NCBI GenBank assembly: GCA_965247095.1
Contig: OZ251997.1
Location: 3,424,001 to 3,488,000 of the forward strand
Direction: 5' to 3'
Source of the DNA: Candidatus Multivorans sp.
Lineage (GTDB): Bacteria > Acidobacteriota > Thermoanaerobaculia > Multivoradales > Multivoraceae
DNA length: 64,000 nt
The notes under the pieces are model-generated. The model did not search any database and was not told where the DNA came from. It worked only from the letters and a program-made list of their open reading frames with translations. Each line of letters opens with the position of its first letter. Position 1 is the first letter of the stretch. The translations under genes and the position numbers were made by a program. Shown here piece by piece: positions 12,651 to 56,713 of the stretch.

Positions 12651-12659
12651 GGCCTCTGT

Positions 12660-34003: not shown

Positions 34004-34066
34004 CTCGCCTGGGTCACGCGGACGCCTTGGGCGTGCTCCACGTCCCGCGACCGCGCAGTCATCCGC

Positions 34067-34969
34067 CTACAGCTTCCCCGTCGCTCGCGCCCGGTCCAGC
34101 ACCGGCTGGTAGATCCGCACCGTCGCCGCGTCGACGAGCTGGCCGCCCTTGCCGCCGGCGCCGGCGCCAGCCTTGAGCGATTCGTTGTAGAGATCGACCA
34201 TCTTCTGCGCCTGCGCGATCTCCCTCGGCGAGGGCGCGAACACATCGTTGGCAAGCGGGATCTGGTTGGGGTGAATGCACCACTTGCCGACGGCGCCGAG
34301 GGAGGCGGCCCAGGTGGCCTGCTGCATGTAGGCGCTGTCGTTCCGGAAGTCGCCGAAGGGGCCGTCGATGGCGTCGATGCCGGCGGCCCGGCAGGCGGCG
34401 ATCATGCGGACCCGGTGGGCGGACCACATGTCGCCGGGGTAGCGATAGTCCTTGTCGAGTTCGTGGCCGAAGCGCATGCCCATGCTCGCCGAAAGGTCGC
34501 CGAAGCCGAGGATGAGCGCCTCGAGGCGGGGCGAGGAGGTGGCGATCGCTTCGACGTTGGCGAGGGCCTCGGCTTCCTCGATCAGTGCCTCCAGGCCGAT
34601 CTTGCGTGTGAGCCCGAGCTTCTGTTCGAGGCCGTCGAGCATGGTCTCGAAGAACCAGATGTCGCGGGGCTGCTTGACCTTGGGCAGGATGATGATGTCG
34701 AGGTTCTCGCCGGCGCCCTCGACGACGCTGATCACGTCGTCGACGGCCCAGCGGGTGGTGTGGTCGTTGACGCGCACGGAGCGCACCTTGTTGCCCCAGT
34801 CGAGTTCGTTCAGACCGTCGATGGCGATCTGGCGCGCGCCCTCCTTCTTCTCGGGGGAGACGGCGTCTTCCAGGTCGAGGAAGACGAGGTCGGCGTCGCT
34901 CCCGGCCGACTTCTCGACCATCCTGGGGTTGCTGGCCGGCACCGCCAGTTCGGAACGTCTCAGTCGCAT
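34067..34969 (-). CDS. CitE-like CoA-ester lyase, copy 2
   Basis: Same length as 10335..11237 and near-identical protein. Confidence 0.9.
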   Translation of the reverse strand: MRLRRSELAVPASNPRMVEKSAGSDADLVFLDLEDAVSPEKKEGARQIAIDGLNELDWGNKVRSVRVNDHTTRWAVDDVISVVEGAGENLDIIILPKVKQPRDIWFFETMLDGLEQKLGLTRKIGLEALIEEAEALANVEAIATSSPRLEALILGFGDLSASMGMRFGHELDKDYRYPGDMWSAHRVRMIAACRAAGIDAIDGPFGDFRNDSAYMQQATWAASLGAVGKWCIHPNQIPLANDVFAPSPREIAQAQKMVDLYNESLKAGAGAGGKGGQLVDAATVRIYQPVLDRARATGKL

Positions 34970-34974
34970 GGGGG

Positions 34975-36234
34975 CTACTCCTTGGGTGGGTCTTCCGGGT
35001 CCAGCCCGGCGTTGATCCCGAACTCGGCGAGGATCTCGTCGCGGTGCTCGTCGAGCAGGGGCGCTCTGCTGCGCACGCCGGTCTTCGTTTCGGTGTACTT
35101 GATCGGGCTGCCGACGATCTTGACCGGCTCGTTGTCGCCCGGCAGCTCGACTTCGGCGACCATCTCGCGGACCGCGGTGTGGGGGCTTTCGAAGATGTCG
35201 GCGGCGGTCTGGACCGGGCCGCAGGGCACCTTGCCGCCGAGCGTTTCGACGACCTGGTCGCGGGTGAGCGAGCCGGTCCACTCCGAGACGACGCCTTCCA
35301 CGAACTCGCGGTTCTTGCGGCGGGCCGCGAAGTCCTTCGTGCGTTCGTCGTCGACGAGTTCCGGCCGCCCCATCTCGTGGCAGAGGATCTCCCACTGGGC
35401 CGGCATCGGCGCGGCGATGGCCACGCCGCCGTCCTTCGCGTCGAAGATGCCGAACGGGCACAGGCTGTGGTGGTGCTTGCCGCGCGGCCCGAGTTGGTTG
35501 CTCTTGGCGGCGCCGTAGTTCGCGAACACCGATTCGCACAGGAAGTTCACCCCGTCGACCATGGCGACGTCCATGAACTGGCCCTTGCCGGTGCGCCGCG
35601 CGTGGTGGACCCCGGCGACGACGCCGAGCGCCATCAGCGTCCCGGGAAACAGGTCGCCGACGGAGGCGCCCCCGGGGTAGCCCCCTCCGGACCCGCCGTC
35701 GCCCGCGGGGCCGTTGATGTGGGCGAAACCGCCCATCGCCTGCGCCACGATGTCGAAGGCCGGCCAGTCGGCGTAGGGGCTCTCGCCGGTCCGCGGGTCG
35801 CCGAAGCCGCGCAGCGCCGCGTAGACGATCCGCGGATTGCGCTCCCGGATCACCTCGTAGCTCAGCCCGAGCCGGTCCATCACGCCGGCGCGCATGTTCT
35901 CGAGCACGGCGTCGGCCTGCTCGCACAGGCGGAGGAAGGTCTCGCGGTCGGCCTCGTCCTTCAGGTCGAGCGAGATGCTGCGCTTGTTCCGGTTGATGCT
36001 GCCGAAGTAGCCGCCGAAGTCGCAGCCGCCGTCGACGCCGGCCTTGCCCTGGGCGGGGTGGATGAAGTCCGGCGGCGTCGGCGGCGAGGGGCGGGACATG
36101 TCGCCGGTCGGCGGCTCCACCTTGATCACGTCGGCGCCGAGGTCGGCGAGGATCGCCGAGCCGAAGGGCCCGGCGAGGGCCATCGTACAGTCGATGATGA
36201 CGAGGTCGCTGAGGGGGCCTGACCCTCCGCCCAC
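34975..36234 (-). CDS. CaiB/BaiF CoA transferase, copy 2
   Basis: Near-identical to 11243..12517, with a Gly-rich insertion (GDGGSGGG) and no REP-derived tail. Confidence 0.92.
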   Translation of the reverse strand: MGGGSGPLSDLVIIDCTMALAGPFGSAILADLGADVIKVEPPTGDMSRPSPPTPPDFIHPAQGKAGVDGGCDFGGYFGSINRNKRSISLDLKDEADRETFLRLCEQADAVLENMRAGVMDRLGLSYEVIRERNPRIVYAALRGFGDPRTGESPYADWPAFDIVAQAMGGFAHINGPAGDGGSGGGYPGGASVGDLFPGTLMALGVVAGVHHARRTGKGQFMDVAMVDGVNFLCESVFANYGAAKSNQLGPRGKHHHSLCPFGIFDAKDGGVAIAAPMPAQWEILCHEMGRPELVDDERTKDFAARRKNREFVEGVVSEWTGSLTRDQVVETLGGKVPCGPVQTAADIFESPHTAVREMVAEVELPGDNEPVKIVGSPIKYTETKTGVRSRAPLLDEHRDEILAEFGINAGLDPEDPPKE

Positions 36235-36707
36235 TACGACCCCCAGTGCGAGCGGCGCTTGATGAGGACCTCGCGCTCGCCCTCGAAGACGATCGTGCCG
36301 TCCTGCTTCGTGCCCCAGTGCTTGAAGCGGACGACGCCGGCGTCGTCGCGGTCGGCGTCGCGGACCTCAAGCACCTCGGTGTAGGCGGTCAGCGAGTCGC
36401 CGAGGAAGACGGGCGCGCGGAAGCGCATCTTGTCGAGGCCGAGTTCGGCGAGGGCGTTCTCGGCCGTGTCCTGGGTTGCCAGGCCGATGACCGTCGAGCC
36501 GGTGACCAGGCCGAACACGAGCCGCTGCCCGAAGGGCGACGCCTTCATCTTGTGCTCGTCGAAGTGGCCGTCGGCGGTGTTCAGGACGAGCTTGGTGAGG
36601 AGCTGGCTTTCGACCTCCTCGATCGTGGTGCCGCGGGCGTGGCGCATCTTCTGGCCGGCGGCGAACTCTTCGAAGTAGGTGGAGGGGGAGGTGAGCGCTG
36701 CGGTCAT
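36234..36707 (-). CDS. MaoC-family dehydratase, copy 2a
   Basis: Near-identical to 12660..13136. Confidence 0.88.
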   Translation of the reverse strand: MTAALTSPSTYFEEFAAGQKMRHARGTTIEEVESQLLTKLVLNTADGHFDEHKMKASPFGQRLVFGLVTGSTVIGLATQDTAENALAELGLDKMRFRAPVFLGDSLTAYTEVLEVRDADRDDAGVVRFKHWGTKQDGTIVFEGEREVLIKRRSHWGS

Positions 36708-36741
36708 GGCGCTGCCTCCTGCCCAGCCGCGGTGGCGGCCC

Positions 36742-36778
36742 GGTTCCCAGAGCGGGCAGGATGCCCGCGTTCCCAGGG
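36742..36778. repeat. REP-like repeat, family A
   Basis: GGTTCCCAGAGCGGGCAGGATGCCCGCGTTCCCAGGG at the position equivalent to 13168-13204. Confidence 0.8.
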
Positions 36779-36795
36779 CGGAGAGCTGTGGGCCG

Positions 36796-37290
36796 TCATG
36801 ACGCCGCCTCGCGCCGCTTGGCGACCAGGTTGGTGCGCTGGTAGCTCAGCACGACCTCTCCCTTCTGGTTGCGGGCCTCCGTTTCCCAGGTGACGATGCC
36901 GAAGTGCGGCCGCGACCCGGACTCGCGGCGGCCGACGACCCGGCTCTTCCCCGTGATCGTGTCGCCGGGGTAGACGGGCCGGTGGAACTTCACGTCGTTC
37001 ACGCCGAGGAATGGCCCGCCGCCCTCGGAGAGGTCTTCGACGGACATGCCGACCACGGTGCAGAGCACGAGCAGCGGGTCGATGACCACCGAGTCGTGCC
37101 CGTGAGCGCGCGCGTACTCGGCGTTGAAGTAGAGCGGCGTGAACCGCATCGTGGCGGTGGCGAAGAGCGCGTTGTCGGCTTCGCTCAGCGTGCGGCCCCA
37201 GTGGTGCTCGAAGACCCGGCCTTCCTCGAAGTCCTGGTAGCGGTTGCCCTTCTTCTGGAGCGGGAAGGTGGAGAAGTCCGGATCGGCCAT
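36796..37290 (-). CDS. MaoC-family dehydratase, copy 2b
   Basis: Near-identical to 13222..13716. Start MADPDF at 37290. Confidence 0.88.
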   Translation of the reverse strand: MADPDFSTFPLQKKGNRYQDFEEGRVFEHHWGRTLSEADNALFATATMRFTPLYFNAEYARAHGHDSVVIDPLLVLCTVVGMSVEDLSEGGGPFLGVNDVKFHRPVYPGDTITGKSRVVGRRESGSRPHFGIVTWETEARNQKGEVVLSYQRTNLVAKRREAAS

Positions 37291-37355
37291 GCGGCGAAAC
37301 CCTCTTGGCTTGATGCTGAAGGCGGTTGGGAGATCTACCACGGTACGATTTGCGG

Positions 37356-37769
37356 ATGATTCCCTGGAACGACCTGAAAACGACCCTTGAGCAGGATCCC
37401 GAGTTCTGGTACACCACGCGGTACTGGACGGCCAACGTCCGGCTGAGCGTGGGCGACCGGCACCATGCGATCCGCTTCCAGGACGGCGCGTTGGCCGCGC
37501 TCGAGCCGTGCGAAGCCGACAGCCCGTGCGACGTCTTCCTGGCCGGCCCCGAAGACGAGTGGCGCGAACTCCTGCGCGCGGAGCCGCGGCCGTTCTATCA
37601 GGATCCGTTCTTCGCCAGCGTGCATCACGGCATCGAGATCAACCGCAATCAGCTCGCGTACGCCGCCTACTACCCGGCGCTGCGGCGCCTGGTCGAGGTG
37701 TTGCGGGAGATCGCCGCAGGTGGCGACGCAAAGAGGATGCTCCTCGGAGAGAAGCGGGCGAATGCCTAG
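37356..37769 (+). CDS. Hypothetical protein (possibly SCP2-like), coupled to the hydrolase
   Basis: MIPWNDLKTTLEQDPEF...EWRELLRAEPRPFYQD. Overlaps the start of the downstream gene. Confidence 0.6.
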   Translation: MIPWNDLKTTLEQDPEFWYTTRYWTANVRLSVGDRHHAIRFQDGALAALEPCEADSPCDVFLAGPEDEWRELLRAEPRPFYQDPFFASVHHGIEINRNQLAYAAYYPALRRLVEVLREIAAGGDAKRMLLGEKRANA

Positions 37770-38655
37770 CTTCGCGCGGCGCGTCGGCCGCTACCTGGAC
37801 CTCGAAGTCCAGGGCGTTTCCTACGAGGTCTACTTCGAATCGGCGGGCAACCCGGACGGCATTCCGCTGGTGCTCCAGCACACCGCCGGCTCCGACGGTC
37901 GCCAGTGGCGCCACCTGCTCGAAGACGAGCGGGTCGGCCGGGACTTCCACATGCTGGCCTACGACCTGCCCTACCACGCCAAGTCCGTGCCGCCCACGGG
38001 CATCGAGTGGTGGAAGCAGGAGTACAAGCTGACCAAGAGCTTCCTGCTCGACTTCGTGACCGCCTTCGTTGGCGAACTCGAACTCGAAGACCCGGTCTAC
38101 ATGGGCAGCTCCATCGGCGGCCACCTGGCCCTCGACCTCGCCTTGCACCGTCCGGGCCTGTTCCAGGCCGTGATCGGGCTCGAAGCCGCGATCAAGTCGG
38201 ATCCCGGCAACATCGACGTGCTCGACCACCCCGAGGTCAGCAACAGCTTCAAGGGCCACCTGATGGTCGGCCTCACCTCGCCCCTGGCGCCCGAGGCGCT
38301 GCGCCGCGAGGTCGGCTGGTGCTACAGCCAGGGCGCGCCGCGGGTGTTCCGGGGCGACCTCTTCTACTGGGGAACCGACCACGACCTGGGCGACCGGGCC
38401 TCGGAGATCGACACCTCGCAGGCCCGCGTCTTCCTGCTGACCGGCGAGTACGACGCCGCCACGACGCCGGAGATGTCCAAGGCGGTCGCCGCCCAGATCA
38501 AGGGCGCGACGTACCGGACGATGGAGGGGCTAGGGCACTTCCCGATGTCGGAGGACCCGGAGCGGTTCTTCGGCTACATCGAGCCGGTGCTGGGGGAGAT
38601 TGTGGGCGATCAGACGCGGCTGGGGGCGCCGGAGTGGCGTCCGGGCGCCCGATGA
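37762..38655 (+). CDS. Alpha/beta fold hydrolase
   Basis: LQHTAGSDGRQW, DLPYHAKS, nucleophile elbow GSSIGG, TGEYD, LGHFPMSEDP. Confidence 0.88.
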   Translation: MPSFARRVGRYLDLEVQGVSYEVYFESAGNPDGIPLVLQHTAGSDGRQWRHLLEDERVGRDFHMLAYDLPYHAKSVPPTGIEWWKQEYKLTKSFLLDFVTAFVGELELEDPVYMGSSIGGHLALDLALHRPGLFQAVIGLEAAIKSDPGNIDVLDHPEVSNSFKGHLMVGLTSPLAPEALRREVGWCYSQGAPRVFRGDLFYWGTDHDLGDRASEIDTSQARVFLLTGEYDAATTPEMSKAVAAQIKGATYRTMEGLGHFPMSEDPERFFGYIEPVLGEIVGDQTRLGAPEWRPGAR

Positions 38656-38700
38656 CGGACGCACGGACTGCTTCACGGTTGGCGCGAATCGCGCCACGCC
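38635..38700. repeat. Family B double-hairpin repeat overlapping the hydrolase stop codon
   Basis: TCCGGGCGCCCGATGACGGACGCACGGA...TGGCGCGAATCGCGCCA. Confidence 0.72.
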
Positions 38701-38819
38701 GAGCGGTATCGACGCGCCTCTTCGCCCGAGTGATACCGTCTTGGTTCGCACGGTATTGCTCCAAGATCTTCTGTACTCGGCCTCGGCACGCGCCCCCCGC
38801 AACGCTCGTCATCTGAACT

Positions 38820-39638
38820 GTGACCAAGGGCCGGCCTCCCGGACTACCTGACTTCCGCAAGCCGCCGCTTGTGGAGGTCGCGCTATCGGTACAGTTCGAA
38901 CCACTGCCCGGACTGACAACGGCTCACGTCGGGCTCCTGTGGCAGAGCAACTACCGGCACCAACTGCCTCTCATCGAAGAACATCCCCCGCTCGAGCCGG
39001 CCACAGAGGATTTCGGCCCGCCTGGTCCCCAGGGAGTCACGATCGCCTTCGGCAACAAACCGCCTGCACCGCGTGTGTGGTTTCTGAACGAGGAGAAGAC
39101 AGAGCTTCTCCAGATTCAGCCTGACCGATTCGCCCACAACTGGCGCAAGACGGGCGAACAGGACCGCTATCCGCGGTACGAGACGATCCGGGACCAGTTC
39201 AGGGATGAAGTCCGTGCGTTTGCCGGGTTCCTCAACGAGGAACGCCTGGACGGCCTATCGATCAACCAGTGTGAGGTCACCTATGTGAACCACGTCGATC
39301 TGGACGAGCCGGAGTTCAGTCGCTTGGAGAAGCTGGTCGCGAACTGGCAGCCGCTTCGCGAGTCCGCCTTCCTGCCCGTTCCCGAGGACCTGTCGTTGAG
39401 CTGGCGATTCCGAATGCCGAATGAGGCCGGCCGCTTACACGTCTTCGTCCAGCCCGCTTGGGATTCGAGCGGAAAACGCCTCTGGGCGTTCCGGCTCATG
39501 GCGCGAGGTCGTCCGGCCGGGGAAGGATTGGAAGGCGCCTTTGGGTTCCTGGATTTGGGCCGAGAGTGGGTCGTCCGCGGATTCGCGGATCTGACGACTG
39601 GCTTGATGCATCGTTTATGGGAGAGAACAGATGTTTGA
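38820..39638 (+). CDS. TIGR04255-family protein
   Basis: LPDFRKPPLVEVALSVQFEPL, PRVWFLNE..TELLQIQPDRFAHNWRK, YPRYETI, CEVTYVNH, final helix F..LTT...H.LW. Confidence 0.75.
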   Translation: MTKGRPPGLPDFRKPPLVEVALSVQFEPLPGLTTAHVGLLWQSNYRHQLPLIEEHPPLEPATEDFGPPGPQGVTIAFGNKPPAPRVWFLNEEKTELLQIQPDRFAHNWRKTGEQDRYPRYETIRDQFRDEVRAFAGFLNEERLDGLSINQCEVTYVNHVDLDEPEFSRLEKLVANWQPLRESAFLPVPEDLSLSWRFRMPNEAGRLHVFVQPAWDSSGKRLWAFRLMARGRPAGEGLEGAFGFLDLGREWVVRGFADLTTGLMHRLWERTDV

Positions 39639-40167
39639 CACAGCCCAATCGGGCCACATGGTTCTTTCTGAACCCCTCGGCTCGCCGGACGAGCACACGA
39701 CATCGTCGAGCGCGTCCAGCCAGCTTGCGAGCGGTCCTGCTCCGCCCGGGGTGCAGTTCCGGGTTGTTAGTGGACCGTATCGCGTCTTGATCGACGCGCC
39801 TCGACTCCCGTCGAAGTCGGTACTGGAGGCGATCCGTCGGGCAGCCGAGCTACTGCAACTCCCTCGGGGCTGGAACTCATACGATGCCGCGCCAGTCTCT
39901 CAGGAGTCCCTTAGAGAGGCACTCACGTTCCTCCTCGAGGCCGCAACAACCATCCCGAACTTGGCGTCACCCGCCGTCGTGCCGACGGCTCCGGGGGGAA
40001 TCCAGCTCGAATGGCACCAAGGCGGAGTGGACATCGAAGTCGAGTTCAACCCCGACGACCCACCGTCTTGGTATGCCGAAGATGTGGCAAGCGGCGAGAC
40101 AGCAGAAGAGGTCCTTGCCCCGAACGACGCCACCCTTCGCGTGTGGTTGGCTCGGGCTTCAGACTGA
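39631..40167 (+). CDS. Hypothetical protein (middle gene of the TIGR04255 module)
   Basis: Low-complexity N-terminus, then LLQLPRGWNSYDAAPVS...PAVVPTAPGGIQLEWHQGGVDIEVEF. 8-bp overlap with the upstream gene. Confidence 0.7.
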   Translation: MFDTAQSGHMVLSEPLGSPDEHTTSSSASSQLASGPAPPGVQFRVVSGPYRVLIDAPRLPSKSVLEAIRRAAELLQLPRGWNSYDAAPVSQESLREALTFLLEAATTIPNLASPAVVPTAPGGIQLEWHQGGVDIEVEFNPDDPPSWYAEDVASGETAEEVLAPNDATLRVWLARASD

Positions 40168-40171
40168 CTTC

Positions 40172-40585
40172 GTGACATCGCCCGAAGAGTGCCGGGCGCG
40201 GTTCCCCGACGATCCAGAGATCGAAGACCATGTGGGCCTGCTGCGGCGGATTCCACGAAGGCACTTCGTGCCCGACAAGAACGGCGGAGGTCGTCGGCTT
40301 TCTTCCGCAGCCTTCTACGACGACCGCGGCGGGGATCCCATGTCTGTCTATCGCACGGACGTCATCGCGTCGGAAGGCGACCGCCCGGACCGGGTGATGG
40401 CCGGGCATACGGGTTTCGGTCTGGTGTCGATCACTGCCGAGAGGTGCCGCCAGAAACAGCAGACAGTTCATGCCGATCCGCTTCCTGACGAGACTGCCCA
40501 CGCCTTGGTCTGCGGCCCGAAGACGAGGAGCCGCCGGAGGTGTTTTGCGAAGCACTCGCAATGGGTCATCGTCCCTCCGGCTTAG
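40172..40585 (+). CDS. Small hypothetical protein, possible ADP-ribosyltransferase/RES-like fold toxin
   Basis: GTG start 4 bp after the previous stop. Motifs LLRRI, RLSSAAF, MSVY, DPLPDETAHALVCG. Confidence 0.55.
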   Translation: MTSPEECRARFPDDPEIEDHVGLLRRIPRRHFVPDKNGGGRRLSSAAFYDDRGGDPMSVYRTDVIASEGDRPDRVMAGHTGFGLVSITAERCRQKQQTVHADPLPDETAHALVCGPKTRSRRRCFAKHSQWVIVPPA

Positions 40586-40606
40586 CAAGGACCGAGTTTC
40601 TCTGGG

Positions 40607-40634
40607 AAGTGTCCACGAAACCGGGGCAAGCTCA
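40607..40634 (-). mobile_element. Orphan IS3-family terminal inverted repeat
   Basis: AAGTGTCCACGAAACCGGGGCAAGCTCA is 27/28 identical to the IS3 end at 3880-3907. No transposase adjacent. Confidence 0.85.
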
Positions 40635-40657
40635 CCCCGGCGCGTTTCCGGAAGCGG

Positions 40658-43600
40658 CTACTTCGGGCGGAAGCGAGTAGCGACATACGTTTCGGCGTCC
40701 CTTTCGCCAAGCCGCACCGTGCCCGGCCCGCTCCGAACGTAGAAATCGCCGTCAGGCCGCTTCTCCAGCACCTTCCACCGCAAGTACACCGGCTCGGGAC
40801 TTCGCTGGCAACTCACGAGACAGACCGTCTTTCCCTCCACGATCTGCGTCTCAGGATCGATGCACGTGCCGGCCCGATCGCCCAAACCGTTGCGTACAAC
40901 CTGCGCCAAGTGCCGCATGAACTTGTCGTCGCTCTCCAGGCGGTCGTGGTCGATGCCGAGCACGTTGCGGTCGTCGTCGACGCCGATGAGGAGGTCCCCG
41001 CCATCGGTGTTGAGGAAGGCGGCGATGGTCTTGAGGGCCGCGTGGGTCACGTGCCGGTCGTCCTTGCGGCCCTCCTTCAGGTTCCAGCGCAGGCTCGACT
41101 TGAACTCGAGCGTCTTCGATTCCTGGAGCTTGAGCAGTTCTTCGGCTCGGCGGTGTCGCTTGATGTAGTCCTCGAACAGGTAGTCCTTGAGGGTCCGGCC
41201 GAAGTCGGGATCGTCGGTGATGCGCTTGTAGAAGTCGAAGTTGGTCTCGACGATTTCCTGGATCTTGTCCTCGACCTTGGGATCGAAGGTGAGCCGCACG
41301 TTCTCGCGGGTGTTCACCCTGGCACTCGCGGTGAGGCCGGCGTCGTGGTCGAGGGCGGATCGGATCTGTTCGAGGGTGACGCGGTGCTCGTCGGTGAGGT
41401 TCAGACCGAAGCGCTCGTTCAGGCCCTCGATGATCCGGGACAGGGCTTCCAACTCCTCGCCGCCGGCGCCGCCTGCAGGCTTGCTCCCGGCGGGCTCGAG
41501 CGGCCGGACTTGCCGTTCGAGCGCAATCCGGCCGCGGCTTGTCGGCTGGATGCGGAAGGACTCCATGTCGATGTTCTGCTGCACCTCGAGGGGCAGGGCC
41601 TCTCGGCCGACGGATAGCAGGCGGCGGAGGTGTCTGGCGAACTGGTAGAGCTTCTCGAGATCGGTATCGGCAAAGGTCAGAACCTGGGAGAGGAAGGCGT
41701 AGAGGCGGGTGTAGTCGGTGAGTTGGCCGAGAAAGTCCTGCGCTTCTTCGTCGACCAGCTCGGCGAAGCGCTGGCGGGCGGGTTCGAGGGCGGCGTAGAT
41801 TCGGTCCTGGGTGGCCTCGGGACCGAAGTACGCCCGCGCGAACGTCTCGATGTCGGCGGTCGCGAACACGCCGAAGTCGACCAGCCGTCCCTGGACTTCG
41901 TACAGCAGGTTGGGGTCGGTCTCTTCGGAGAGGAGGGTGGTCTCGTAGTACGGCTCGAAGGCCTTCTGGATCTCGTCCGGCTCGTTGGCGAAGTCGAGGA
42001 CCATCGTGCCGCCCTTGGCGGGGTGGGTGCGGTTCAGGCGAGACAGCGTCTGGACCGCGTTCACGCCGCCGAGTTTCTTGTCCACGTACATCGTGTGGAG
42101 CAACGGCTGGTCGAAGCCGGTCTGGAACTTGTTGGCGACGATCAGGAAGCGGTACTCGGGCTTGTCGAACGCGGCGGCCGTCTGCCGCTCGCCGATCACC
42201 CGATCCTGCCCGGCCGAGTTCATGCCGGACTCCGTGTAGGACTGGCCGCCGTCCTTGACCGTTCCGGAGAAGGCGACGAGCGCCTTCCAGGGGTGGCCCT
42301 TCTCCTCCACGTAGCGATCCAGGGCGAGCCTGGTGCGCACCGCGTGCAGGCGGGAGCGGGTGACGATCATTGCCTTGGCGCGGCCGCCGATCTCAGGCGC
42401 GACCAACTCGGCGAAGTGCTCCACGCAGATGGCGATCTTCTCTCGGATGGCATGCGAGTGGAGCTCGACGAAGGACTTGAGGAGATGCTCCGCCTTCCGT
42501 TTGTCGTAGCGCGGGTCGCCCTCGATCTTCTTCTTCAGGCGCCAGTACGCCTTGTAGGTCGTGTAACTGCCGAGCACGTCGAGAATGAACCCCTCCTCGA
42601 TCGCCTGGCGCATGCTGTAGAGGTGGAAGGGCTTGAACCTGCCGTCCGGCTGCTTCTCGCCGAAGAGCTCGAGGGTCTTGGGCTTCGGCGTGGCCGTGAA
42701 AGCGAACGTCGAAAGGTTCGGCAGTGGCCCGCGGAGGCGGATCTCCTCGTGGACGCGGTCTTCGAGCTCCTCCTCGGGAGTCAATGCGCCCGCCTCTGCC
42801 TGCTCGGCCTCCTCCAGGCTCTGCGCGTCGAGGACGGCCTTGAGGCTCTTGGTGCTCTCACCGGACTGCGAGGAGTGCGCTTCGTCCGCGATCACCGCGA
42901 AGCGCTTGCCGGGGAGCTGGCCGATCTCATCGGCGATGACCGGGAACTTCTGCAACGTGGTGACGATGATCGTCCGGCCGGCTTCCAGGGCCTCGCGGAG
43001 TTGGCGCGAGGTGTGGTCGATGTTTTCGACCACGCCGAGGGTCTGCTCGAACTGCCGGACGGTCTGCTGGAGCTGGCGGTCGAGCAGTCGACGGTCGGTC
43101 ACCACGACCACCGAATCGAAGACGCGCCGGTCGTCGAGGTCATGCAGCACCGAGAGCTGGTGGGCGAGCCAGGCGATCGTGTAGCTCTTGCCGCTGCCGG
43201 CCGAATGCTGGATCAGGTAACGCTCGCCCGGGCCGTGGTTGCGCGCGTGGCTGACGAGCCGGCGCACACAGTCGAGCTGCTGGTAGCGCGGGAAGATGAG
43301 GAAACGCTTGCCAGTCCTGCGCCCGCGATCATCTTCCTCCGTGACCTCCTGGATGAACTGGCGAAGGAGGTCGAGGATGCTGTCGCGGGCCCAGATCCGC
43401 TCCCACAGGTAGTCGGTGGGGTAGCCCTGGCGGGTGAGCGGGACGGCCGGGTTTCCCGCGCCGCCGTAGCGGCCCTGGTTGAAGGGCAGAAACCGGGTCT
43501 TGGGCCCCGCGAGGTGCGTGGTCACGAACACCTGTTCCGGGTCCACGGCGAAGTGGGCAAGGCAGCGTCCGTAGCCGAACAGCGGTTCCCGCGGATCCCG

Positions 43601-44194
43601 ATCGTTCTTGTACTGCCGGATGGCGTCGTCGACGGTCTGTCCAGTGAGTGGGTTCTTGAGTTCGGCCGTGAAGATGGGAATGCCGTTCAGGAAAAGCCCC
43701 AGGTCGACGCTCTCCTCGTTCTTCTCGCTGAAGTGGAGCTGGCGTACGACGGCGAAGAGGTTGGCGGCGTGCAGGCGCTGGAGTTCCTCGTTGAGGCCGC
43801 TTGCCGGTTGGAAGTACGCGAGCCGGAACTTGCAGCCCGAGTCTCTGACGCCGTTCCGCAGCACGTCGAGGGCGCCGCGGCGGGCGATCTCGCGTGACAG
43901 GCGGCCCAGGAAGCGCGGCTTCAGGTCGGCGCCGTAGTGCTGCTTGAGCTTCGTCCACTCCTTTGGCTGGGTGGCCAGGAGGAAGTCGAGGACATCGGGC
44001 GGGACCAGGCAGAGGGCGCGGTCGTAGTCCTTGGGCCGGCGCTTGTGGAAGCCGCCGGGCAGCGGGTCGTGGCCGTATGACGCGGCGGACTCGCGCAGTT
44101 CGGTGACGTCGTCCGGGTGGGCGTCGGGGCCGTGCTGGAGGAGGGCGCGCTCGATGGCCTGCTCGAAGCCGCGTTCTGAGATCTCGGGAGTCAT
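40658..44194 (-). CDS. hsdR: Type I restriction enzyme R subunit with C-terminal AlbA_2/Schlafen-like domain
   Basis: Nuclease motif VDLGLFLNGIPIFTAELKN, Walker A HSAGSGKS, DEAH, FTATP, FQTGFDQP, QTLSRLNR. Tail ESKTLEFKSSLRWN...KTIAAFLNTDGGDLLIGVDD. Confidence 0.93.
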   Translation of the reverse strand: MTPEISERGFEQAIERALLQHGPDAHPDDVTELRESAASYGHDPLPGGFHKRRPKDYDRALCLVPPDVLDFLLATQPKEWTKLKQHYGADLKPRFLGRLSREIARRGALDVLRNGVRDSGCKFRLAYFQPASGLNEELQRLHAANLFAVVRQLHFSEKNEESVDLGLFLNGIPIFTAELKNPLTGQTVDDAIRQYKNDRDPREPLFGYGRCLAHFAVDPEQVFVTTHLAGPKTRFLPFNQGRYGGAGNPAVPLTRQGYPTDYLWERIWARDSILDLLRQFIQEVTEEDDRGRRTGKRFLIFPRYQQLDCVRRLVSHARNHGPGERYLIQHSAGSGKSYTIAWLAHQLSVLHDLDDRRVFDSVVVVTDRRLLDRQLQQTVRQFEQTLGVVENIDHTSRQLREALEAGRTIIVTTLQKFPVIADEIGQLPGKRFAVIADEAHSSQSGESTKSLKAVLDAQSLEEAEQAEAGALTPEEELEDRVHEEIRLRGPLPNLSTFAFTATPKPKTLELFGEKQPDGRFKPFHLYSMRQAIEEGFILDVLGSYTTYKAYWRLKKKIEGDPRYDKRKAEHLLKSFVELHSHAIREKIAICVEHFAELVAPEIGGRAKAMIVTRSRLHAVRTRLALDRYVEEKGHPWKALVAFSGTVKDGGQSYTESGMNSAGQDRVIGERQTAAAFDKPEYRFLIVANKFQTGFDQPLLHTMYVDKKLGGVNAVQTLSRLNRTHPAKGGTMVLDFANEPDEIQKAFEPYYETTLLSEETDPNLLYEVQGRLVDFGVFATADIETFARAYFGPEATQDRIYAALEPARQRFAELVDEEAQDFLGQLTDYTRLYAFLSQVLTFADTDLEKLYQFARHLRRLLSVGREALPLEVQQNIDMESFRIQPTSRGRIALERQVRPLEPAGSKPAGGAGGEELEALSRIIEGLNERFGLNLTDEHRVTLEQIRSALDHDAGLTASARVNTRENVRLTFDPKVEDKIQEIVETNFDFYKRITDDPDFGRTLKDYLFEDYIKRHRRAEELLKLQESKTLEFKSSLRWNLKEGRKDDRHVTHAALKTIAAFLNTDGGDLLIGVDDDRNVLGIDHDRLESDDKFMRHLAQVVRNGLGDRAGTCIDPETQIVEGKTVCLVSCQRSPEPVYLRWKVLEKRPDGDFYVRSGPGTVRLGERDAETYVATRFRPK

Positions 44195-44257
44195 GGGACG
44201 TTCAGAGCGCAGCCGGACACGGCGCCGGTTGGGTTGTGCGATACTATGAGTGGTACT

Positions 44258-44512
44258 ATGCGTGGGAAGCACCGGCGAACCCTGGAGAGAATGCGCACGC
44301 GGCCAACGCCGGCGGACATCCGCTGGACGGACCTCGTAGCCATGCTCCAGGCCGCTGGTGTCCAGGTCTCGGAGCGCTCCGGGTCGAGAGTGCTCCTGAA
44401 GCAGGACGCGGAGCGGATGATTGTGCATCGGCCGCATCCAACACGGGTACTGGGCCGCGGGGCGGTGCGCGCCATCGTCGCCTTTCTCGATGCTGGAGGA
44501 GTGGAACCATGA
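44258..44512 (+). CDS. hicA: HicA-family toxin
   Basis: KHRRTLERM...DIRWTDLVAML...ERSGSRV...VHRPHP. ATGA overlap with hicB. Confidence 0.85.
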   Translation: MRGKHRRTLERMRTRPTPADIRWTDLVAMLQAAGVQVSERSGSRVLLKQDAERMIVHRPHPTRVLGRGAVRAIVAFLDAGGVEP

Positions 44513-44841
44513 TGAAGTACAAGGACTACGTTGCTGCCGTCGAATTCGACGATTCGGTGGGCCGTCTGCACGGCTGGGTCGTCAACAGCGGCCCCTATCC
44601 CATCGCGACGTTCGAAGCGATCGATGTTGACGGGCTTCGACGGGAGTTCGAGCGCTCCGTCGACGAGTACTTGGCGTCGTGCGCGGAGGATGGCGTCGAG
44701 CCGCGAAAGCCGTTCTCCGGCGTCCTCAACCTGCGGCTTGGACCCGACCTGCATCAACGAGCCGCCCTTTCCGCCGGCGCTCTCGGTGTGAGCCTGAACA
44801 GTTGGATCAAGCAGGCCGTCGAGGAGAAGGCTCTTCACTGA
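44509..44841 (+). CDS. hicB: HicB-family antitoxin
   Basis: MKYKDYVAAVEFDD...SVDEYLASC...EPRKPFSGVLNLRLGPDLH...SLNSWI. Confidence 0.9.
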   Translation: MMKYKDYVAAVEFDDSVGRLHGWVVNSGPYPIATFEAIDVDGLRREFERSVDEYLASCAEDGVEPRKPFSGVLNLRLGPDLHQRAALSAGALGVSLNSWIKQAVEEKALH

Positions 44842-44888
44842 CTGCGCGGGATAGCGGAACCGGAAGGCGAGGGCCAAGAGTCGTGTCG

Positions 44889-44943
44889 TGTCACAGCTCA
44901 ATGTCACAGCTTGTCGCAGCTCATGTCACACCTTGTCGCAGCT
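44889..44943. repeat. Array of five 10-bp direct repeats TGTCRCASCT
   Basis: TGTCACAGCT at 44889 and 44902, TGTCGCAGCT at 44912 and 44934, TGTCACACCT at 44924. Confidence 0.8.
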
Positions 44944-45111
44944 TTGACCTCGGCCCCGCGAACCTCTCCGTCAACCCGCCACGACGCGCCCAGCTTCTGA
45001 TCAGATGGGTCCAGCCCTCCGCGAATGTCGCCTGTTCCAGCACTGTTGCGCCCGCTTGGTCCGCGAGAGGTTGGCGGTGATCGCGGGGGTTGACTGTGCG
45101 CGACTGGAAGC

Positions 45112-46488
45112 TCATCGAGGTGCTGCCTCACGCACGTCGATCTTGCCGGTGACCGCGGCGGAGATGAGAGCGGTGCGGAGTTCCTTGAAGTGGCGGATTG
45201 CTTCCTCAACCTTGGCAACTAGGAGATGGACGCGGAGACACTCCTTCTGGATGTGAGCGACGATGTTGCCTTGCTCATCAACTCGTGGCACAGGCGTCGT
45301 GAGTGTCTTCACTTCGGGCATCCCGATCGTACGCAGTGTGGCGCCCATCGTTAGTCGCTCAAGCTCGCTCCGCATGGCGTCGAAGACGCGCAGCAGGTAC
45401 TCGGGACTCACGGCCTCGCTGCAAAGCCAAGCTATGAAGTGCTGCGACACGGCCGTCGAGCGCTCGGTTATCGCACAGAGGCCAATCGTTGCGTCGCGCG
45501 AGAAGACGACCGACCGTGGCGGAAGCAGGCGGGCCGACGAGTTGGCTAGCCCGAGTTCGTTCGTGTAGTACGCCGTGTCGCCGATGTAATCGTGATTCTT
45601 GAGGTAGCCAGTATCGTTCAGCGAAACCCAGGGAATGTCCCCGTCGTTCCAGTAGGCGTCGACTTTCTTGTCTGGAGTATGGCCGCTCTCCATTCGAGCG
45701 ACCCATTTCACACGCTTCACATCCCAGTGCATCGGGATCTCGCCCAGCCACTCGACGCCGGAGTCCTTCATGGGGACTTTGGGGTCGAGGCCCCGGGTGA
45801 CGACGCGGGTGATGAGGGCGGTCCGTTTCTCCTTAAGCAGCTCGATCAGCCGCTCCTTCTTCGCCACTAGCGCATCGATCTTCGCTGTCTCGCGGTCGAG
45901 GAAATCAGCGATTGCTTGTTGCTCGGAGAAGGAGGGTAGAGGATGGCGGAAGTTGCGAACAAAGTTACCGGAGATTCGCTTCTGGCCGCCCGCGCCATAC
46001 ATGGAGGCTTCTCCGATGAGGCGGAAGTGGTTGCCGAAAGTCAGGTAGAGAAGGAAACGAGCTTCCACCTCGGAAGACGGACGTAGCACGTGGAGCTCGG
46101 TCGTTCCGAAGCCGACGCTACTGGAGAGGCCTTTGGCTAGAGCGCCCTTACCGTTCTCGAAGCACGGCGTGATCTTGGCAACGATGACGTCTCCGTCGCG
46201 GAAGTACGTGTAGCCGTCGAGGACCTCTGAGAGCGGTTTGGTCGAATCGAGGCTCAGGCCGCCGTACTCGCGGATCGCTTCCATCGGAACAAAAGAAACC
46301 TCGGTCTCGGGATTGAAGGTGCTTACCTCTTTCTTGCTGAGTCTCGTTTCAACGACGAACCGGAGCCGCGTAGAGTCCCAGTGCGCCGGAATCTCCGGCA
46401 GCCACTCGATGTCGGGGTCCCTGTATTCTGGGTACCGCTGAAAGCGTCGCCGGGCCTCCTCCTCGGTCCAGTGGGTAATCTCGGTCAT
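45112..46488 (-). CDS. hsdS: Type I R-M specificity subunit
   Basis: Two TRDs with conserved spacers EQQAIADFLDRETAKIDALV...MKDSGVEWLGEIP and ELRTALISAAVTGKIDVR. Confidence 0.93.
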   Translation of the reverse strand: MTEITHWTEEEARRRFQRYPEYRDPDIEWLPEIPAHWDSTRLRFVVETRLSKKEVSTFNPETEVSFVPMEAIREYGGLSLDSTKPLSEVLDGYTYFRDGDVIVAKITPCFENGKGALAKGLSSSVGFGTTELHVLRPSSEVEARFLLYLTFGNHFRLIGEASMYGAGGQKRISGNFVRNFRHPLPSFSEQQAIADFLDRETAKIDALVAKKERLIELLKEKRTALITRVVTRGLDPKVPMKDSGVEWLGEIPMHWDVKRVKWVARMESGHTPDKKVDAYWNDGDIPWVSLNDTGYLKNHDYIGDTAYYTNELGLANSSARLLPPRSVVFSRDATIGLCAITERSTAVSQHFIAWLCSEAVSPEYLLRVFDAMRSELERLTMGATLRTIGMPEVKTLTTPVPRVDEQGNIVAHIQKECLRVHLLVAKVEEAIRHFKELRTALISAAVTGKIDVREAAPR

Positions 46489-47444
46489 GGCTCTTCGCCT
46501 CCGGTCAGAGCCTGAAGTCCCGCTCGCCATGGCCCGCGGGGGGGCCAGACCTGCGTGAACGGCCTCCCCCCAATGAGGCTGTCGCAGACCGGACCCAGAA
46601 AGGTCCGCAACTCCTCGCCAGCGTCAACGAGGTGAGCCGGCCCATCGGCCTTTGGCCCTATCCGCCTCCGCAGCACCTGCCACCTCTGGTCTCGCTCGGT
46701 GTCCTCGTAGTACTCAGGCAGCAGAGCCACCGGCCTCTCACTGGCGAACGATGTTCGCCGGCGCCGGAAGGTCTCCTCAACCGCGGTTCGCACCGTCTCG
46801 CCGTCGAACGCGAAGAGGCGAGCGAGACAGGCGATGTCCCAGAGATCCTTCACGCGGGTGTTCGTCGTACCGAGGCGCACCATCGCGTCGAGCTTCTCGG
46901 CCAGAAGAGTCTCCCGCGGGTAGGTCCAGAGGCGCGGGGCGGGCAGGTCGAGAAGGGTGGGATAGTCCCGCTCCTGACGCTCGGGCGTGATGACGTCACC
47001 AAAGCCGATGTCCGCCTGGAGGTGGAGTCGCGCCTGGCCGAGCCCGCCCTCCATCCGCACGCGCACACCGCCGTGGGGCTGGTCGTCACGGATGTCGTGC
47101 ATACGGATCGTCGCCGGGTCGAAGACGACGCCGTCCTGGGGGCATGGCGCTGCGCAGATCGCTTCAAAGGAGGTCCGCAAGGCCGCATGGTCTTCGGGCC
47201 CGGACGAGAGAAAGTCGATGTCCCGGGTGGGTCGCAGTTCCTGTCCGGTCCATACCCGGAAGAGAGCCGCCCCCTTCAGGGTGAATCGATCCACCTCATG
47301 GGAGGTGGCGAGGCGGTACAGGAAGCGCTCCATCGCGTAGCGCTGGAGCAGGAGATTGAAGCGAGTCCCCTGGCGGTGGGCAAGGTTCAGCAGGCGCTGG
47401 TGAATGGATGCGGGAACGTTGCGGATCTCCCTCTTGCGGGTCAT
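46485..47444 (-). CDS. abiEii: AbiEii/AbiGii nucleotidyltransferase toxin
   Basis: ASIHQRLLNLA...YAMERFLYRL...FTLKGAALF...RPTRDIDF...AEKLDAM...NTRVKDLWD. Confidence 0.9.
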   Translation of the reverse strand: MTRKREIRNVPASIHQRLLNLAHRQGTRFNLLLQRYAMERFLYRLATSHEVDRFTLKGAALFRVWTGQELRPTRDIDFLSSGPEDHAALRTSFEAICAAPCPQDGVVFDPATIRMHDIRDDQPHGGVRVRMEGGLGQARLHLQADIGFGDVITPERQERDYPTLLDLPAPRLWTYPRETLLAEKLDAMVRLGTTNTRVKDLWDIACLARLFAFDGETVRTAVEETFRRRRTSFASERPVALLPEYYEDTERDQRWQVLRRRIGPKADGPAHLVDAGEELRTFLGPVCDSLIGGRPFTQVWPPRGPWRAGLQALTGGEEP

Positions 47445-48097
47445 GCCGACAGAGCCTCCAGCACCGGACCGACCAGCGACTTGGCGCGGCAGACCTCCGC
47501 AGCCCGCCAGATCTCGTCGGCGGTTGCCTTGCGGTCGCCCAGGGCGTCGCGAAGTGCCTCCAGCGCCACGTCTTTCCCGACTAGCCTGCGGAAGCGAAAG
47601 CAGTCCACGACCGTTCGGGCCGGGCTCGTGATGCGCGTCGGAACCCCCTCGAAGGTTGCCCTCACGACCCCGTAGTGGAGCGAAGCGCCGGAGAAGCGAA
47701 CGATCTTGACCGGTAGCTCGCCAAGTTGAGGGGCTCTGGCCTTGTGCGGAATGGCGATCCACTCCTGCCACGGGAGCTGGGTCCCAAGGCCGTGGACGCT
47801 GAGCGCGGACAGCAGGCAGACAATGGCGCCCGGGACCCGCGCGCAAACTGCGGCCAGGGTGTAGTGCTCGGTGGGTTCCATGTCGGCGAGCCGGTAGAGA
47901 CCACGGGCAACTCTCTCGACCGAACCGGCATCCACGAGTTGCCGCAGTTGGCGGGAGTGGACGCCCAGTTGGGCTGCATCGCGCTGGCGGAAGAAGCCCC
48001 TGGCGCCGAGGCTCTGCCGGGCGGTGCCGCTCAGCCGGGTACGCCGGTCGGAAGTGTCGGCAACTGTGGATAGTTGCCTGCTGTTCTCAACGGCCAT
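47441..48097 (-). CDS. abiEi: AbiEi type IV antitoxin / transcriptional regulator
   Basis: VERVARGLYRL, VCLLSALSVHGL, ITSPARTVVDCFRFR...ALEALR. Confidence 0.9.
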   Translation of the reverse strand: MAVENSRQLSTVADTSDRRTRLSGTARQSLGARGFFRQRDAAQLGVHSRQLRQLVDAGSVERVARGLYRLADMEPTEHYTLAAVCARVPGAIVCLLSALSVHGLGTQLPWQEWIAIPHKARAPQLGELPVKIVRFSGASLHYGVVRATFEGVPTRITSPARTVVDCFRFRRLVGKDVALEALRDALGDRKATADEIWRAAEVCRAKSLVGPVLEALSA

Positions 48098-48163
48098 GCC
48101 GAGAGCCTAGGCCGCCGTGCTCCAGCGTGTCAAGTTGTCGGCAGATATCCGTGAGTGCCGACA
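48055..48163 (-). promoter_or_regulatory. Putative abiE promoter and operator inverted repeats
   Basis: Minus-strand TTGACA (48133-48128), 18 nt, TAGGCT (48109-48104). Perfect IR TGTCGGCA-N12-TGCCGACA at 48136-48163 and a degenerate copy TGTCGGCA-N12-TGCC at 48055-48078. Confidence 0.6.
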
Positions 48164-48173
48164 TTTCGATGCT

Positions 48174-50288: not shown

Positions 50289-50435
50289 GGTTGACGGGTC
50301 GGAATGTAGCGGATCGGCGTACGCCGGTCACTCCCGCCATTGCGCTGTACGGCCTGTCTCCGCACCAACGTCGTCGGCGGCTAGGCCGGTGTCCGTTCGA
50401 ACGGCTGCTCCTCTGCGAGCGTGCTGGCGCCGTCC

Positions 50436-50600
50436 TCAGTCAGCTTGGTAGCGCTTCCGGAGCCGCGCGAACACATCGGCCGCCGGCTGGACCTGACCAG
50501 CTTCGATCTGACGGTCGCCCAGTGCGAGTATCTTGAGCAGAGCCAGCGTTTCAGGTCGCGGCTTGGGCTCTGTCGGCTTGTGCGGTTTCGGCTTTGACAT
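50436..50600 (-). CDS. Short orphan antitoxin-like peptide (Phd/YefM-type C-terminal part)
   Basis: ETLALLKILALGDRQIEAGQVQPAADVFARLR. No N-terminal DNA-binding domain and no toxin follows. Confidence 0.55.
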   Translation of the reverse strand: MSKPKPHKPTEPKPRPETLALLKILALGDRQIEAGQVQPAADVFARLRKRYQAD

Positions 50601-50666
50601 GGTCTCCTCCTCGCGGGCCAAACATAGCCCATGCCGTGTGCGTATTGCGGGTAGGGAAGCCGGAGG

Positions 50667-50927
50667 ATGAAGAGGAAGCTGACGATCAGGGTAGACGGCG
50701 AGCTGATTCGCCGAGCCAGGCACTGCGCTCAGGCTCGCGGCGTCTCGCTGTCTTCCCTTGTAGAGACATCGCTCAGAGAGGTGGTGCGGGAAAGCGATCC
50801 CTCGTTCGCGTCCCGGTGGAGGGGCAAGTTCGAAGAGGCACGACGAGACGATGTCCGGTACAAGGCGCTCGCCCGCAAGTACCTTGACGGTGCCGGACAG
50901 GGGTGCTCGACAGAGGCTGCCGTATGA
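50667..50927 (+). CDS. Ribbon-helix-helix antitoxin-like protein (DUF6364-like)
   Basis: MKRKLTIRVDGELIRRARHCAQARGVSLSSLVETSL...YKALARKYL. Confidence 0.7.
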   Translation: MKRKLTIRVDGELIRRARHCAQARGVSLSSLVETSLREVVRESDPSFASRWRGKFEEARRDDVRYKALARKYLDGAGQGCSTEAAV

Positions 50928-50992
50928 AGCACAAGGGCTATATCGCCGCCGTCGAGTACGACGATTCGGTAGGTCGTCTACACGGCTGGGTC
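50924..50992 (+). pseudogene. N-terminal fragment of a second hicB
   Basis: MKHKGYIAAVEYDDSVGRLHGWV matches HicB at 44509 (MKYKDYVAAVEFDDSVGRLHGWV), then homology stops. Confidence 0.8.
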
Positions 50993-51175
50993 GAGATCGC
51001 AGCCGTCGTCGCCGACGATCCGGCGGATCATCGCGCCGACCGGTTCCTCGTCCACAACCGCGCTACGGAGGATGCGCCGAACGGTCTCCTCCAGAGACAG
51101 GGACTCCCGCTCCGCACGAATCTTCAGGCGACGGACGACCTCACTGTCTAGGCGACGTACACTCAGGCTTGCCAT
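50978..51175 (-). CDS. FitA-like ribbon-helix-helix antitoxin, 3' truncated
   Basis: MASLSVRRLDSEVVRRLKIRAERESLSLEETVRRIL. Runs head-on into the hicB fragment and no PIN toxin is present. Confidence 0.7.
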   Translation of the reverse strand: MASLSVRRLDSEVVRRLKIRAERESLSLEETVRRILRSAVVDEEPVGAMIRRIVGDDGCDLDPAV

Positions 51176-51252
51176 TGGCTCCGCTCCGTGGGCTTCGCGG
51201 TTCGCGACGCTAGCAGGAGGCGCCGAAGTGCTGGTAGTCAGTTGAGCACGCC

Positions 51253-52446: not shown

Positions 52447-52463
52447 TGACGCGGGTTCCGCCC

Positions 52464-52498
52464 CTGGGACCGCGGGCGTCTCGCCCGCATCCGGCGCC
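52464..52498. repeat. REP-like repeat, family A variant
   Basis: CTGGGACCGCGGGCGTCTCGCCCGCATCCGGCGCC. The stem shows a compensatory change (GCGGGCG-N3-CGCCCGC). Confidence 0.75.
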
Positions 52499-52519
52499 AG
52501 CAGTTGAGGAGGAAACGCC

Positions 52520-56617: not shown

Positions 56618-56635
56618 GCGGTAGAACGATCTGAC

Positions 56636-56681: not shown

Positions 56682-56713
56682 TCTGGGAGTTCTGCCGCGC
56701 TAGCGGCTAGTGG

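Follow-up and report, generated by a model that had tools for sequence, protein, structure and literature searches.

A widespread three-gene TIGR04255 operon in Candidatus Multivorans sp. as a candidate conflict module distantly related to PDC-M32

Introduction

What does a tightly coupled TIGR04255 gene cluster do at the edge of a bacterial defence island? We addressed this for three genes, here called g1, g2 and g3, in a 64,000-nucleotide stretch of the genome of Candidatus Multivorans sp. (Acidobacteriota; contig OZ251997.1, positions 3,424,001 to 3,488,000; hereafter the window). The reading that we prefer, to which we give slightly less than an even chance, is that the triad is a horizontally mobile conflict operon: a toxin-antitoxin-like or abortive-infection module, and a distant three-part variant of the candidate system PDC-M32.

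Results

Three genes form a conserved operon

The triad spans 38820-40585 (1.77 kb) and its genes are co-oriented, with an 8-bp overlap between g1 and g2 and a gap of 4 bp between g2 and g3. These coordinates, sizes and spacings had been given in an original prediction made from the window, and all were borne out on re-measurement. The whole g2 open reading frame (ORF) runs from an ATG start over 39631-40167 and encodes 178 residues. The parts of the triad are:

38820-39638, plus strand: g1, TIGR04255 protein of 272 residues with a GTG start; two repeats resembling TATA-binding protein (TBP) are predicted; candidate accessory component or sensor
39631..39816, plus strand: N-terminal tail of g2, residues 1-62; variable and Ser/Pro-rich, with short semi-conserved motifs
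39817..40167, plus strand: C-terminal domain of g2, residues 63-178 (GWNSY...GGIQLEWH...E); PDC-M32A-like; candidate neutraliser of g3 or adaptor
40172-40585, plus strand: g3, compact alpha/beta protein of 137 residues with a GTG start; member of a large unnamed family; candidate effector or toxin

Compared with four orthologous loci, the ratio of non-synonymous to synonymous substitution rates (dN/dS) was 0.16-0.20 for g1, 0.18-0.51 for g2 and 0.10-0.39 for g3. Because these values all lie between 0.10 and 0.51 and the genes recur jointly elsewhere, the three are real genes under purifying selection and more than chance ORFs. The protein record of the window's g3 (P0016) has 81 residues, begins at the internal Met57 and appears to leave out 40172-40339. 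The dN/dS of g3 codons 2-56 therefore matters, and was 0.08-0.48 in the three of four orthologous loci where it could be computed. Together with 25 aligned homologues that span all 137 residues, this supports a 137-residue g3 from the GTG at 40172 as the likely product over the 81-residue form.

A g3 profile search of one-genome-per-species contigs gave 74 loci (cited below by L numbers). Their hosts belong to at least eight phyla and are mostly Acidobacteriota; the others include Planctomycetota, Myxococcota, Gemmatimonadales, Dormiibacterota, Spirochaetales, a Planktothrix and several proteobacteria. The three genes had been taken for one module in the original prediction, and their order and spacing were indeed kept at 53 of the 74 loci, where g1, g2 and g3 are all whole and g1/g2 distances range from -26 to -1 bp and g2/g3 distances from -23 to +30 bp. 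By tblastn and profile searches, g1 is present upstream of g2-g3 in 62/74 loci and g2 in 72/74, the other two loci beginning at g3; g2 precedes g3 in every one of the 72 loci having upstream DNA. Moreover, when pairwise identities were compared over 42 loci, the matrices for g1, g2 and g3 were correlated with one another (Pearson, 0.76-0.90, uncorrected for shared ancestry), and g2 was the most divergent (mean identity 0.32 versus 0.49 and 0.51 for the other two). A Bryobacteraceae contig (L035) carries a second, diverged g1-g2-g3 triad at 860-2616, approximately 2 kb upstream of its main triad.

The G+C content of the triad is 0.631, against 0.683 and 0.674 in its flanks, and its G+C at third codon positions is 0.73 versus 0.85-0.96 in the metabolic genes upstream. 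A further copy (L075) was found on a Mycobacterium paragordonae plasmid (NZ_CP025547.1, 3986-5725), where a TIGR04255 gene is followed by overlapping genes of 180 and 142 residues. Alignment with hhalign matched the products of these two genes to g2 (probability 93.9%) and g3 (96.6%), and the plasmid g3 differs at several positions that are otherwise invariant. This was the only plasmid record with a detectable triad (1/72,556). Taken together, these data show a widely shared operon whose genes are inherited together and translationally coupled. It is probably also horizontally mobile, because its G+C is lower than that of its flanks, its neighbours vary by locus, its hosts span at least eight phyla and one copy is on a plasmid.

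On the plasmid the triad is flanked by mobF on one side and a gene for a type IV coupling protein on the other, and an ArdC-like gene adjoins the triad of L041. Both would suit a role in helping conjugative elements to counter defence or to become established, with g3 modifying a host defence factor after transfer. However, only two of 75 loci show such a setting, the DNA around most triads is not recognisably conjugative, and no copies turned up among the phage records searched; we regard such a function as very unlikely.

Similarity to PDC-M32 and defence neighbourhoods

In PADLOC-DB, g2 matches only PDC-M32A and g3 only PDC-M32B. All 50 of the g2 homologues searched match PDC-M32A (best E 1.9e-16), always at positions ~260-350 of 375. 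The g3 of the window scores E 0.011 against PDC-M32B, which is matched at E <= 0.01 by 12 of the 51 g3 homologues from the loci and by 31 of 145 members of the wider g3 family (best E 4.6e-9). No g1 homologue (0/42) matched the PDC-M32 models. As none of these 42 matches PDC-M32A in particular, the idea that g1 and g2 represent a split PDC-M32A was rejected. PDC systems are 145 candidates from a guilt-by-embedding screen, chosen for being embedded in BREX, DISARM or type I restriction-modification (RM) systems (10.1101/2024.01.29.577857); the term 'PDC-M' does not occur in its main text. Elsewhere in the literature searched PDC-M32 is named only as a PADLOC listing in Sinorhizobium prophages. 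On profile similarity, then, the triad appears to be a three-gene, distant variant of the candidate phage-defence system PDC-M32.

The nearest gene on each side was scanned in 60 loci, leaving out ten near-duplicate or fragmentary ones, and this gave 116 proteins compared with Pfam and 111 with PADLOC. A credible defence neighbour was found in 10/60 loci. In L015 (1408-9373) an HmaB-like methylase lies upstream and an HmaC-like ATPase downstream on one strand, which places the triad inside an Hma system. The defence neighbours elsewhere are:

L001: hsdR
L003: AbiEi and AbiJ
L007: AbiJ
L020: PDC-S48/DEDDh
L021: mad8
L041: DrmD-like
L043: hsdS
L063: PDC-S07
L072: HEC-02A

Five further PADLOC matches among the neighbours look like generic domain matches. 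Pfam identified integrase, transposase, ArdC and PIN genes as neighbours in L019, L025, L067, L041 and L029. The defence and mobile-element setting that had been proposed from the window alone is thus met repeatedly across hosts, and PDC-M32 A and B were the sole PADLOC matches of the triad.

g2 and g3 behave as a pair

The serine- and proline-rich N-terminus ahead of a compact domain, recognised in the original prediction of g2, was borne out. Ser, Pro, Thr, Ala, Gly and Gln make up 56% of residues 1-62, and the mean frequency of the top residue is 0.28-0.30 in the tail versus 0.44-0.58 in the C-terminal part. The tail also varies in length, the distance from the g2 start to the GW[ND]S motif being 66-106 residues in the 37 of 50 sequences having that motif, and short semi-conserved motifs can be seen in it by eye. 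Invariant residues of g2 are W81, P114, P118, G122, W128 and E136. No longer or fused relative of g2 came up in a search for them, a negative that carries little weight.

The two genes decay asymmetrically. In 6-7 loci g3 is broken and g2 whole, and in none does a broken g2 stand beside a whole g3. Six loci (L033, L045, L060, L066, L069, L070) have g3 split between frames or with stop codons, and each of them has g2 as one continuous match. An IS66-family transposase gene lies exactly between g2 and g3 in L025 (4019-6033), where no start codon is left before approximately residue 21 of g3; independently, an IS4-family element separates the two genes in L059 (2141-3625). Fragments of both genes remain in L061 and L073. 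On gene length alone, the chance that six of six disruptions would strike g3 and not g2 is ~0.007 by our own arithmetic, which ignores relatedness. Because g2 always accompanies g3 and only g3 breaks alone, the asymmetry fits what would be expected of a toxin and its neutraliser. That g2 and g3 form a paired unit had been proposed before, and the obligate association, the fast evolution of g2 and the confinement of lone breaks to g3 all agree with it.

A small effector with a fast-evolving partner could also be a secreted polymorphic toxin (g3) with its immunity protein (g2), and the weak fold matches of g3 described below include Tse2 with its immunity protein Tsi2. Yet g3 consists of one 137-residue domain and lacks any delivery or signal region at its N-terminus, the gene order, with the partner first, is that of toxin-antitoxin pairs, and no secretion-system family was recognised among the 116 neighbours scanned. 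We consider this explanation extremely unlikely.

g3 is a compact protein with a basic conserved set

The AlphaFold2 model of g3 has a predicted local distance difference test score (pLDDT) of 96.7 and a predicted template-modelling score (pTM) of 0.90. Its family is large, with 2,907 representative clusters (50% identity) at E <= 0.001 and 1,438 at E <= 1e-10, nearly all of 125-145 residues. Among 145 sequences, R25, R26, R42, S45, F48, S58, R93, H110, G115 and K117 are near-invariant. R42, S45, A47, F48, M57, S58, V59 and H110, the residues singled out in the original prediction, rank among the most conserved. The model thus shows g3 as a compact, well-folded protein whose predicted conserved surface chemistry consists mainly of four Arg, one His, one Lys and two Ser. 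The sole g3 homologue in the Atlas, P0003, has only hypothetical neighbours, and its nearest named cluster is DUF6098, at a score of 0.92 that is often reached by chance.

The best structural match of g3 in the PDB is the phosphotransferase Tpt1 (6e3a; Foldseek probability 0.72, template-modelling (TM) score 0.42). Of the 44 PDB matches listed for g3, 19 are entries with the ADP-ribosyltransferase (ART) fold, at probabilities of up to 0.72 and TM-scores of up to 0.42. The matches listed include 13 Tpt1/KptA RNA 2'-phosphotransferases, two ParT, two cholera toxin A1, one AvrPphF ORF2 and one Tse2, the last two of which we take to have ART-like folds. Tpt1 has an Arg/His tetrad and ARTs have R-S motifs, and the conserved Arg, Ser and His of g3 recall both. 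The motif positions of g3 were assigned by sequence order only; in a comparison with the R-S-E/H-Y-E pattern of NAD+ sites, R25/R26 and S58 are invariant in g3 and the position of the expected catalytic Glu varies. Given its basic, Ser- and His-bearing conserved residues and the weak Tpt1/ART theme, g3 may act on a substrate that carries phosphate, such as RNA, DNA or NAD+.

g1 is a TIGR04255 protein with predicted TBP-like repeats

g1 matches NCBIfam TIGR04255 with 69.5 bits (cut-off 30; E 3.7e-19) over positions 2-252 of 252, and its orthologues in L002, L050 and L072 also pass the cut-off. A literature search for 'TIGR04255' gave no match. Pfam contained no family at E <= 1 for g1, g2 or g3, nor did profile searches of PDB sequences yield a meaningful match to any of them. 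The AlphaFold2 model of g1 (pLDDT 91.1, pTM 0.88) has two halves, each with a beta-alpha-beta4-alpha order. Foldseek returned 21 PDB matches at E <= 0.001, all of them S-adenosylmethionine decarboxylases (AdoMetDC) or TBPs, with probabilities of 0.95-1.00 over 240-300 columns and sequence identities of 6-14%. TM-scores were low, at 0.23-0.31 by query and up to 0.43 by target, and root-mean-square deviations (rmsd) were 11-18 A. We therefore describe g1 as a predicted protein of two TBP-like repeats.

The g1 family has 25 invariant columns. Since many of the invariant polar residues (E19, Q25, R85, Q98, Q100, R103, N107, C151, E152, Y155, N157, R205 and R229) sit on predicted strands, the model suggests a specific binding or catalytic face and not a generic chaperone. 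The original prediction had cast g1 as a chaperone or sensor. The chaperone role found no backing in a SecB-like fold, as the model matches AdoMetDC and TBP, SecB is absent among the matches listed and Pfam gave nothing.

In L042, L046 and L049 a different first gene, encoding ~222 residues, takes the place of g1; the alternative first genes of these loci and of L070 have no NCBIfam, Pfam or PADLOC match. Elsewhere g1 is frameshifted (L044, L066, L069) or carries an internal deletion (L033). By eye, the g2 tails differ in the three loci with the ~222-residue alternative, and in L028, which lacks a first gene, g2 starts only ~40 residues before GWNSY and has almost no tail.

The predicted folds of g1 and g3 can be combined in a non-toxic explanation, namely nucleic-acid processing or repair by a phosphate-directed enzyme resembling Tpt1/KptA (g3), a TBP-like binder of nucleic acids (g1) and an adaptor (g2), perhaps countering ribotoxin damage. 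Among the weak matches of g3, Tpt1/KptA enzymes occur most often (13/44 listed), the conserved residues of g3 are Arg, His, Lys and Ser rather than an acidic catalytic residue, and the modelled fold of g1 matches the DNA-binding TBP. TBP domains are also found in DNA glycosylases and RNase HIII, according to PMC3597702. However, the distribution of the triad is sporadic, its G+C is below that of its flanks and its neighbours vary. Moreover, disruptions recur in g3 and leave g2 intact, sequence comparison does not connect g3 with KptA, and the PADLOC matches lead to a candidate defence system. A processing or repair role is on balance quite unlikely.

Discussion

A candidate conflict module

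In the conflict-operon reading, g3 would be an effector with a phosphate-bearing target, working on a nucleic acid or modifying one in an NAD+-dependent manner, by analogy with Tpt1/KptA-type enzymes and ART toxins. The conserved C-terminal domain of g2 would bind and silence g3 as its obligate partner and probable neutraliser, whilst the variable N-terminal tail of g2 would dock on g1. g1 may be an accessory sensor or regulator that holds this tail. It would sense a trigger, for example a phage product or a nucleic acid, and then release or expose g2, so that g3 would become active and growth of the infected cell would stop. A bolder version is that TIGR04255 proteins are two-repeat TBP-fold sensors that gate, via the tail of a PDC-M32A-like adaptor or antitoxin, a minimal, hitherto unrecognised Tpt1/ART-like nucleic-acid-modifying enzyme, which would make the triad a chaperone-independent counterpart of toxin-antitoxin-chaperone (TAC) defence systems; this we hold to be rather improbable. 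If the conflict-operon reading is true, TIGR04255, the PDC-M32A C-terminal domain and the g3 family (~2,900 clusters) would all gain a role at once, and a three-part defence or toxin-antitoxin architecture with no SecB chaperone would be added to those known.

A number of observations count against the conflict-operon reading and its parts. Concerning g3, Foldseek gave no PDB match at E <= 0.001 (best E 0.1-0.3) and no significant match among viral models. The candidate catalytic Glu, E107, is Glu in 46%, Asp in 25% and Asn or Gln in 17% of 145 g3 sequences. The 145-sequence g3 profile did not align with E. coli KptA in hhalign (probability 0.09%), the target being a single sequence and sensitivity thus limited. 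The original prediction had proposed an ART- or RES-like fold; ART structures do recur among the weak matches, but none is significant, the Glu is not conserved, and no RES or other Pfam family was matched by g3 at E <= 1. An ART fold for g3 is thus hinted at by the model comparisons. Several of the frameshifts come from long-read metagenome assemblies and may be sequencing errors. Concerning context, the neighbours are housekeeping genes or lack a known role in 50/60 loci, and the enrichment of defence neighbours that the remaining loci suggested was counted without a control set. tblastn searches with g3 covered 72,556 plasmid records and 50,697 phage records and found no match; a tblastn search of the phage records with g1 was likewise negative. 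Concerning g1, an all-frame profile search detected no trace of it in seven loci that keep g2-g3 (L028, L032, L042, L045, L046, L049, L070), and in L044 it is frameshifted while g3 is whole. g1 is thus an accessory part that is not needed to tolerate g3: with g2-g3 persisting in seven loci that lack it, it cannot be essential for restraining g3. The tail-docking idea is itself weakened, because L032 and L045 (judged by eye) keep the g2 tail without any g1.

The persistence of g2-g3 without g1 would also be expected of a selfish addiction module, in which a type II-like g2-g3 pair stabilises mobile DNA, g1 is dispensable and there is no phage-defence role. The diverged triad on the plasmid between relaxase and coupling-protein genes is consistent with this, as are the integrase, transposase, ArdC and PIN neighbours in L019, L025, L067, L041 and L029, and the decay of g3 fits any toxin. 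Against it, a detectable triad occurs in only 1/72,556 plasmid records, and most loci are chromosomal with housekeeping neighbours. Moreover, g1 is strongly conserved (dN/dS 0.16-0.20, 25 invariant columns), which argues for a selected function beyond addiction. We therefore think pure addiction fairly unlikely, and addiction and defence are not mutually exclusive.

Surroundings in the window

Upstream of the triad lie genes for a CoA-transferase, a MaoC-type hydratase and an alpha/beta-hydrolase. Downstream, hsdR (40658-44437, minus strand) converges on g3 and is followed by hsdS, AbiEii, AbiEi and hsdM. The original prediction had placed the triad at the edge of a defence island, converging on hsdR, and a type I RM system with AbiE is confirmed next door. 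It had also noted a repeat on the upstream side, where a 61-nt dispersed repeat has one copy at 38628-38688. The orphan IS3 end that it named on the other side was partly substantiated. A solitary insertion-element end is present, whereas the family name IS3 was not confirmed:

40611-40650, no strand assigned: solitary insertion-element end; inverted-repeat pairs I7 and I9 lead to the ends of the element at 2660-3907

This 40-nt stretch lies between g3 and the hsdR stop and matches the inverted ends of a two-ORF insertion element at ~2660-3907, whose transposase is a very common multi-copy gene. It marks the island junction. No Rfam family was found within 36000-52000 and no promoter-like sites within 38400-40800.

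Several features of the neighbouring island were observed in passing. The type I restriction R subunit (40658-44437, minus strand) has a C-terminal Schlafen/AlbA_2 domain at residues 1106-1242; this fusion recurs in the syntenic locus L001, and the start of the hsdR ORF as listed is probably too far upstream. The AbiEii-AbiEi pair (46488-48097, minus strand) lies between hsdS and hsdM, which makes it a defence pair nested inside the operon of a type I RM system. Two copies of a 70-nt direct repeat (44512-44581 and 50924-50993, 84% identical) start two small plus-strand ORFs (44512-44841 and 50924-51151) that flank the hsdR-hsdS-AbiE-hsdM block. For these small ORFs a PDB sequence search gave no toxin-antitoxin name and PADLOC no match; a HicAB reading of them was dropped, as the PDB sequence search gave it no backing.

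Two further repeat classes occur in the window. Direct copies of ~3 kb (10334-13454 and 34066-37028, 88-92% identical; families D1, D2 and D4-D6) cover the CoA-transferase and MaoC-type hydratase genes and thus form a paralogous metabolic cluster. Short G+C-rich palindromic intergenic repeats with a GCGGGCAGGATGCCCGC core (D10, D18, I1-I4, I8) are scattered through the window in both orientations, with sites at 11265-11317, 12536-12579, 13151-13208, 36737-36782, 52461-52500 and 56629-56687.

Comparison with known systems

The original prediction likened the triad to CmdTAC. Like CmdTAC and HigBAC, the triad has three genes, an effector proposed to be ART-like, a partner with a poorly conserved extension and a third protein that could couple sensing to release. 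However, the features that define TAC systems are a SecB-like chaperone and an antitoxin bearing a chaperone-addiction element (PMC11618068; 10.1101/2024.02.24.581848). The predicted fold of g1 is TBP-like and not SecB-like, and g1 can be lost while g3 stays whole. The chaperone-addiction element of TAC antitoxins is C-terminal, whereas the variable tail of g2 is N-terminal, and the triad has no sequence match to PADLOC families other than PDC-M32. Membership of the TAC group was not upheld, because g1 is not a SecB-like chaperone; the comparison is best taken as an analogy of logic.

With PDC-M32 the triad shares gene order, an A-like gene being followed by a B-like one, with the C-terminal domain of g2 resembling A and the g3 family resembling B. 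In some loci it lies beside or inside RM and Hma systems, the kind of context used to pick the PDC candidates. The differences are that g2 covers only ~260-350 of the 375-position A profile, not its whole length, and that a separate TIGR04255 gene precedes the g2-g3 pair.

Tpt1/KptA, ParT and cholera toxin A1 account for 17 of the 44 matches listed for g3 and are similar in size and alpha/beta class. g3 nevertheless differs from Tpt1/KptA and ART enzymes in having no significant match to them (TM-scores of up to 0.42) and no conserved residue at the Glu position. Lastly, g1 resembles the TBP/AdoMetDC fold in its two beta-alpha-beta4-alpha repeats. It differs in their modelled arrangement, as judged from the low TM-scores and the rmsd of 11-18 A. 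According to PMC3597702, all TBP domains characterised outside TBP itself are single copies; in contrast, g1 would, if the prediction is true, be a bacterial example of a two-repeat TBP-like protein.

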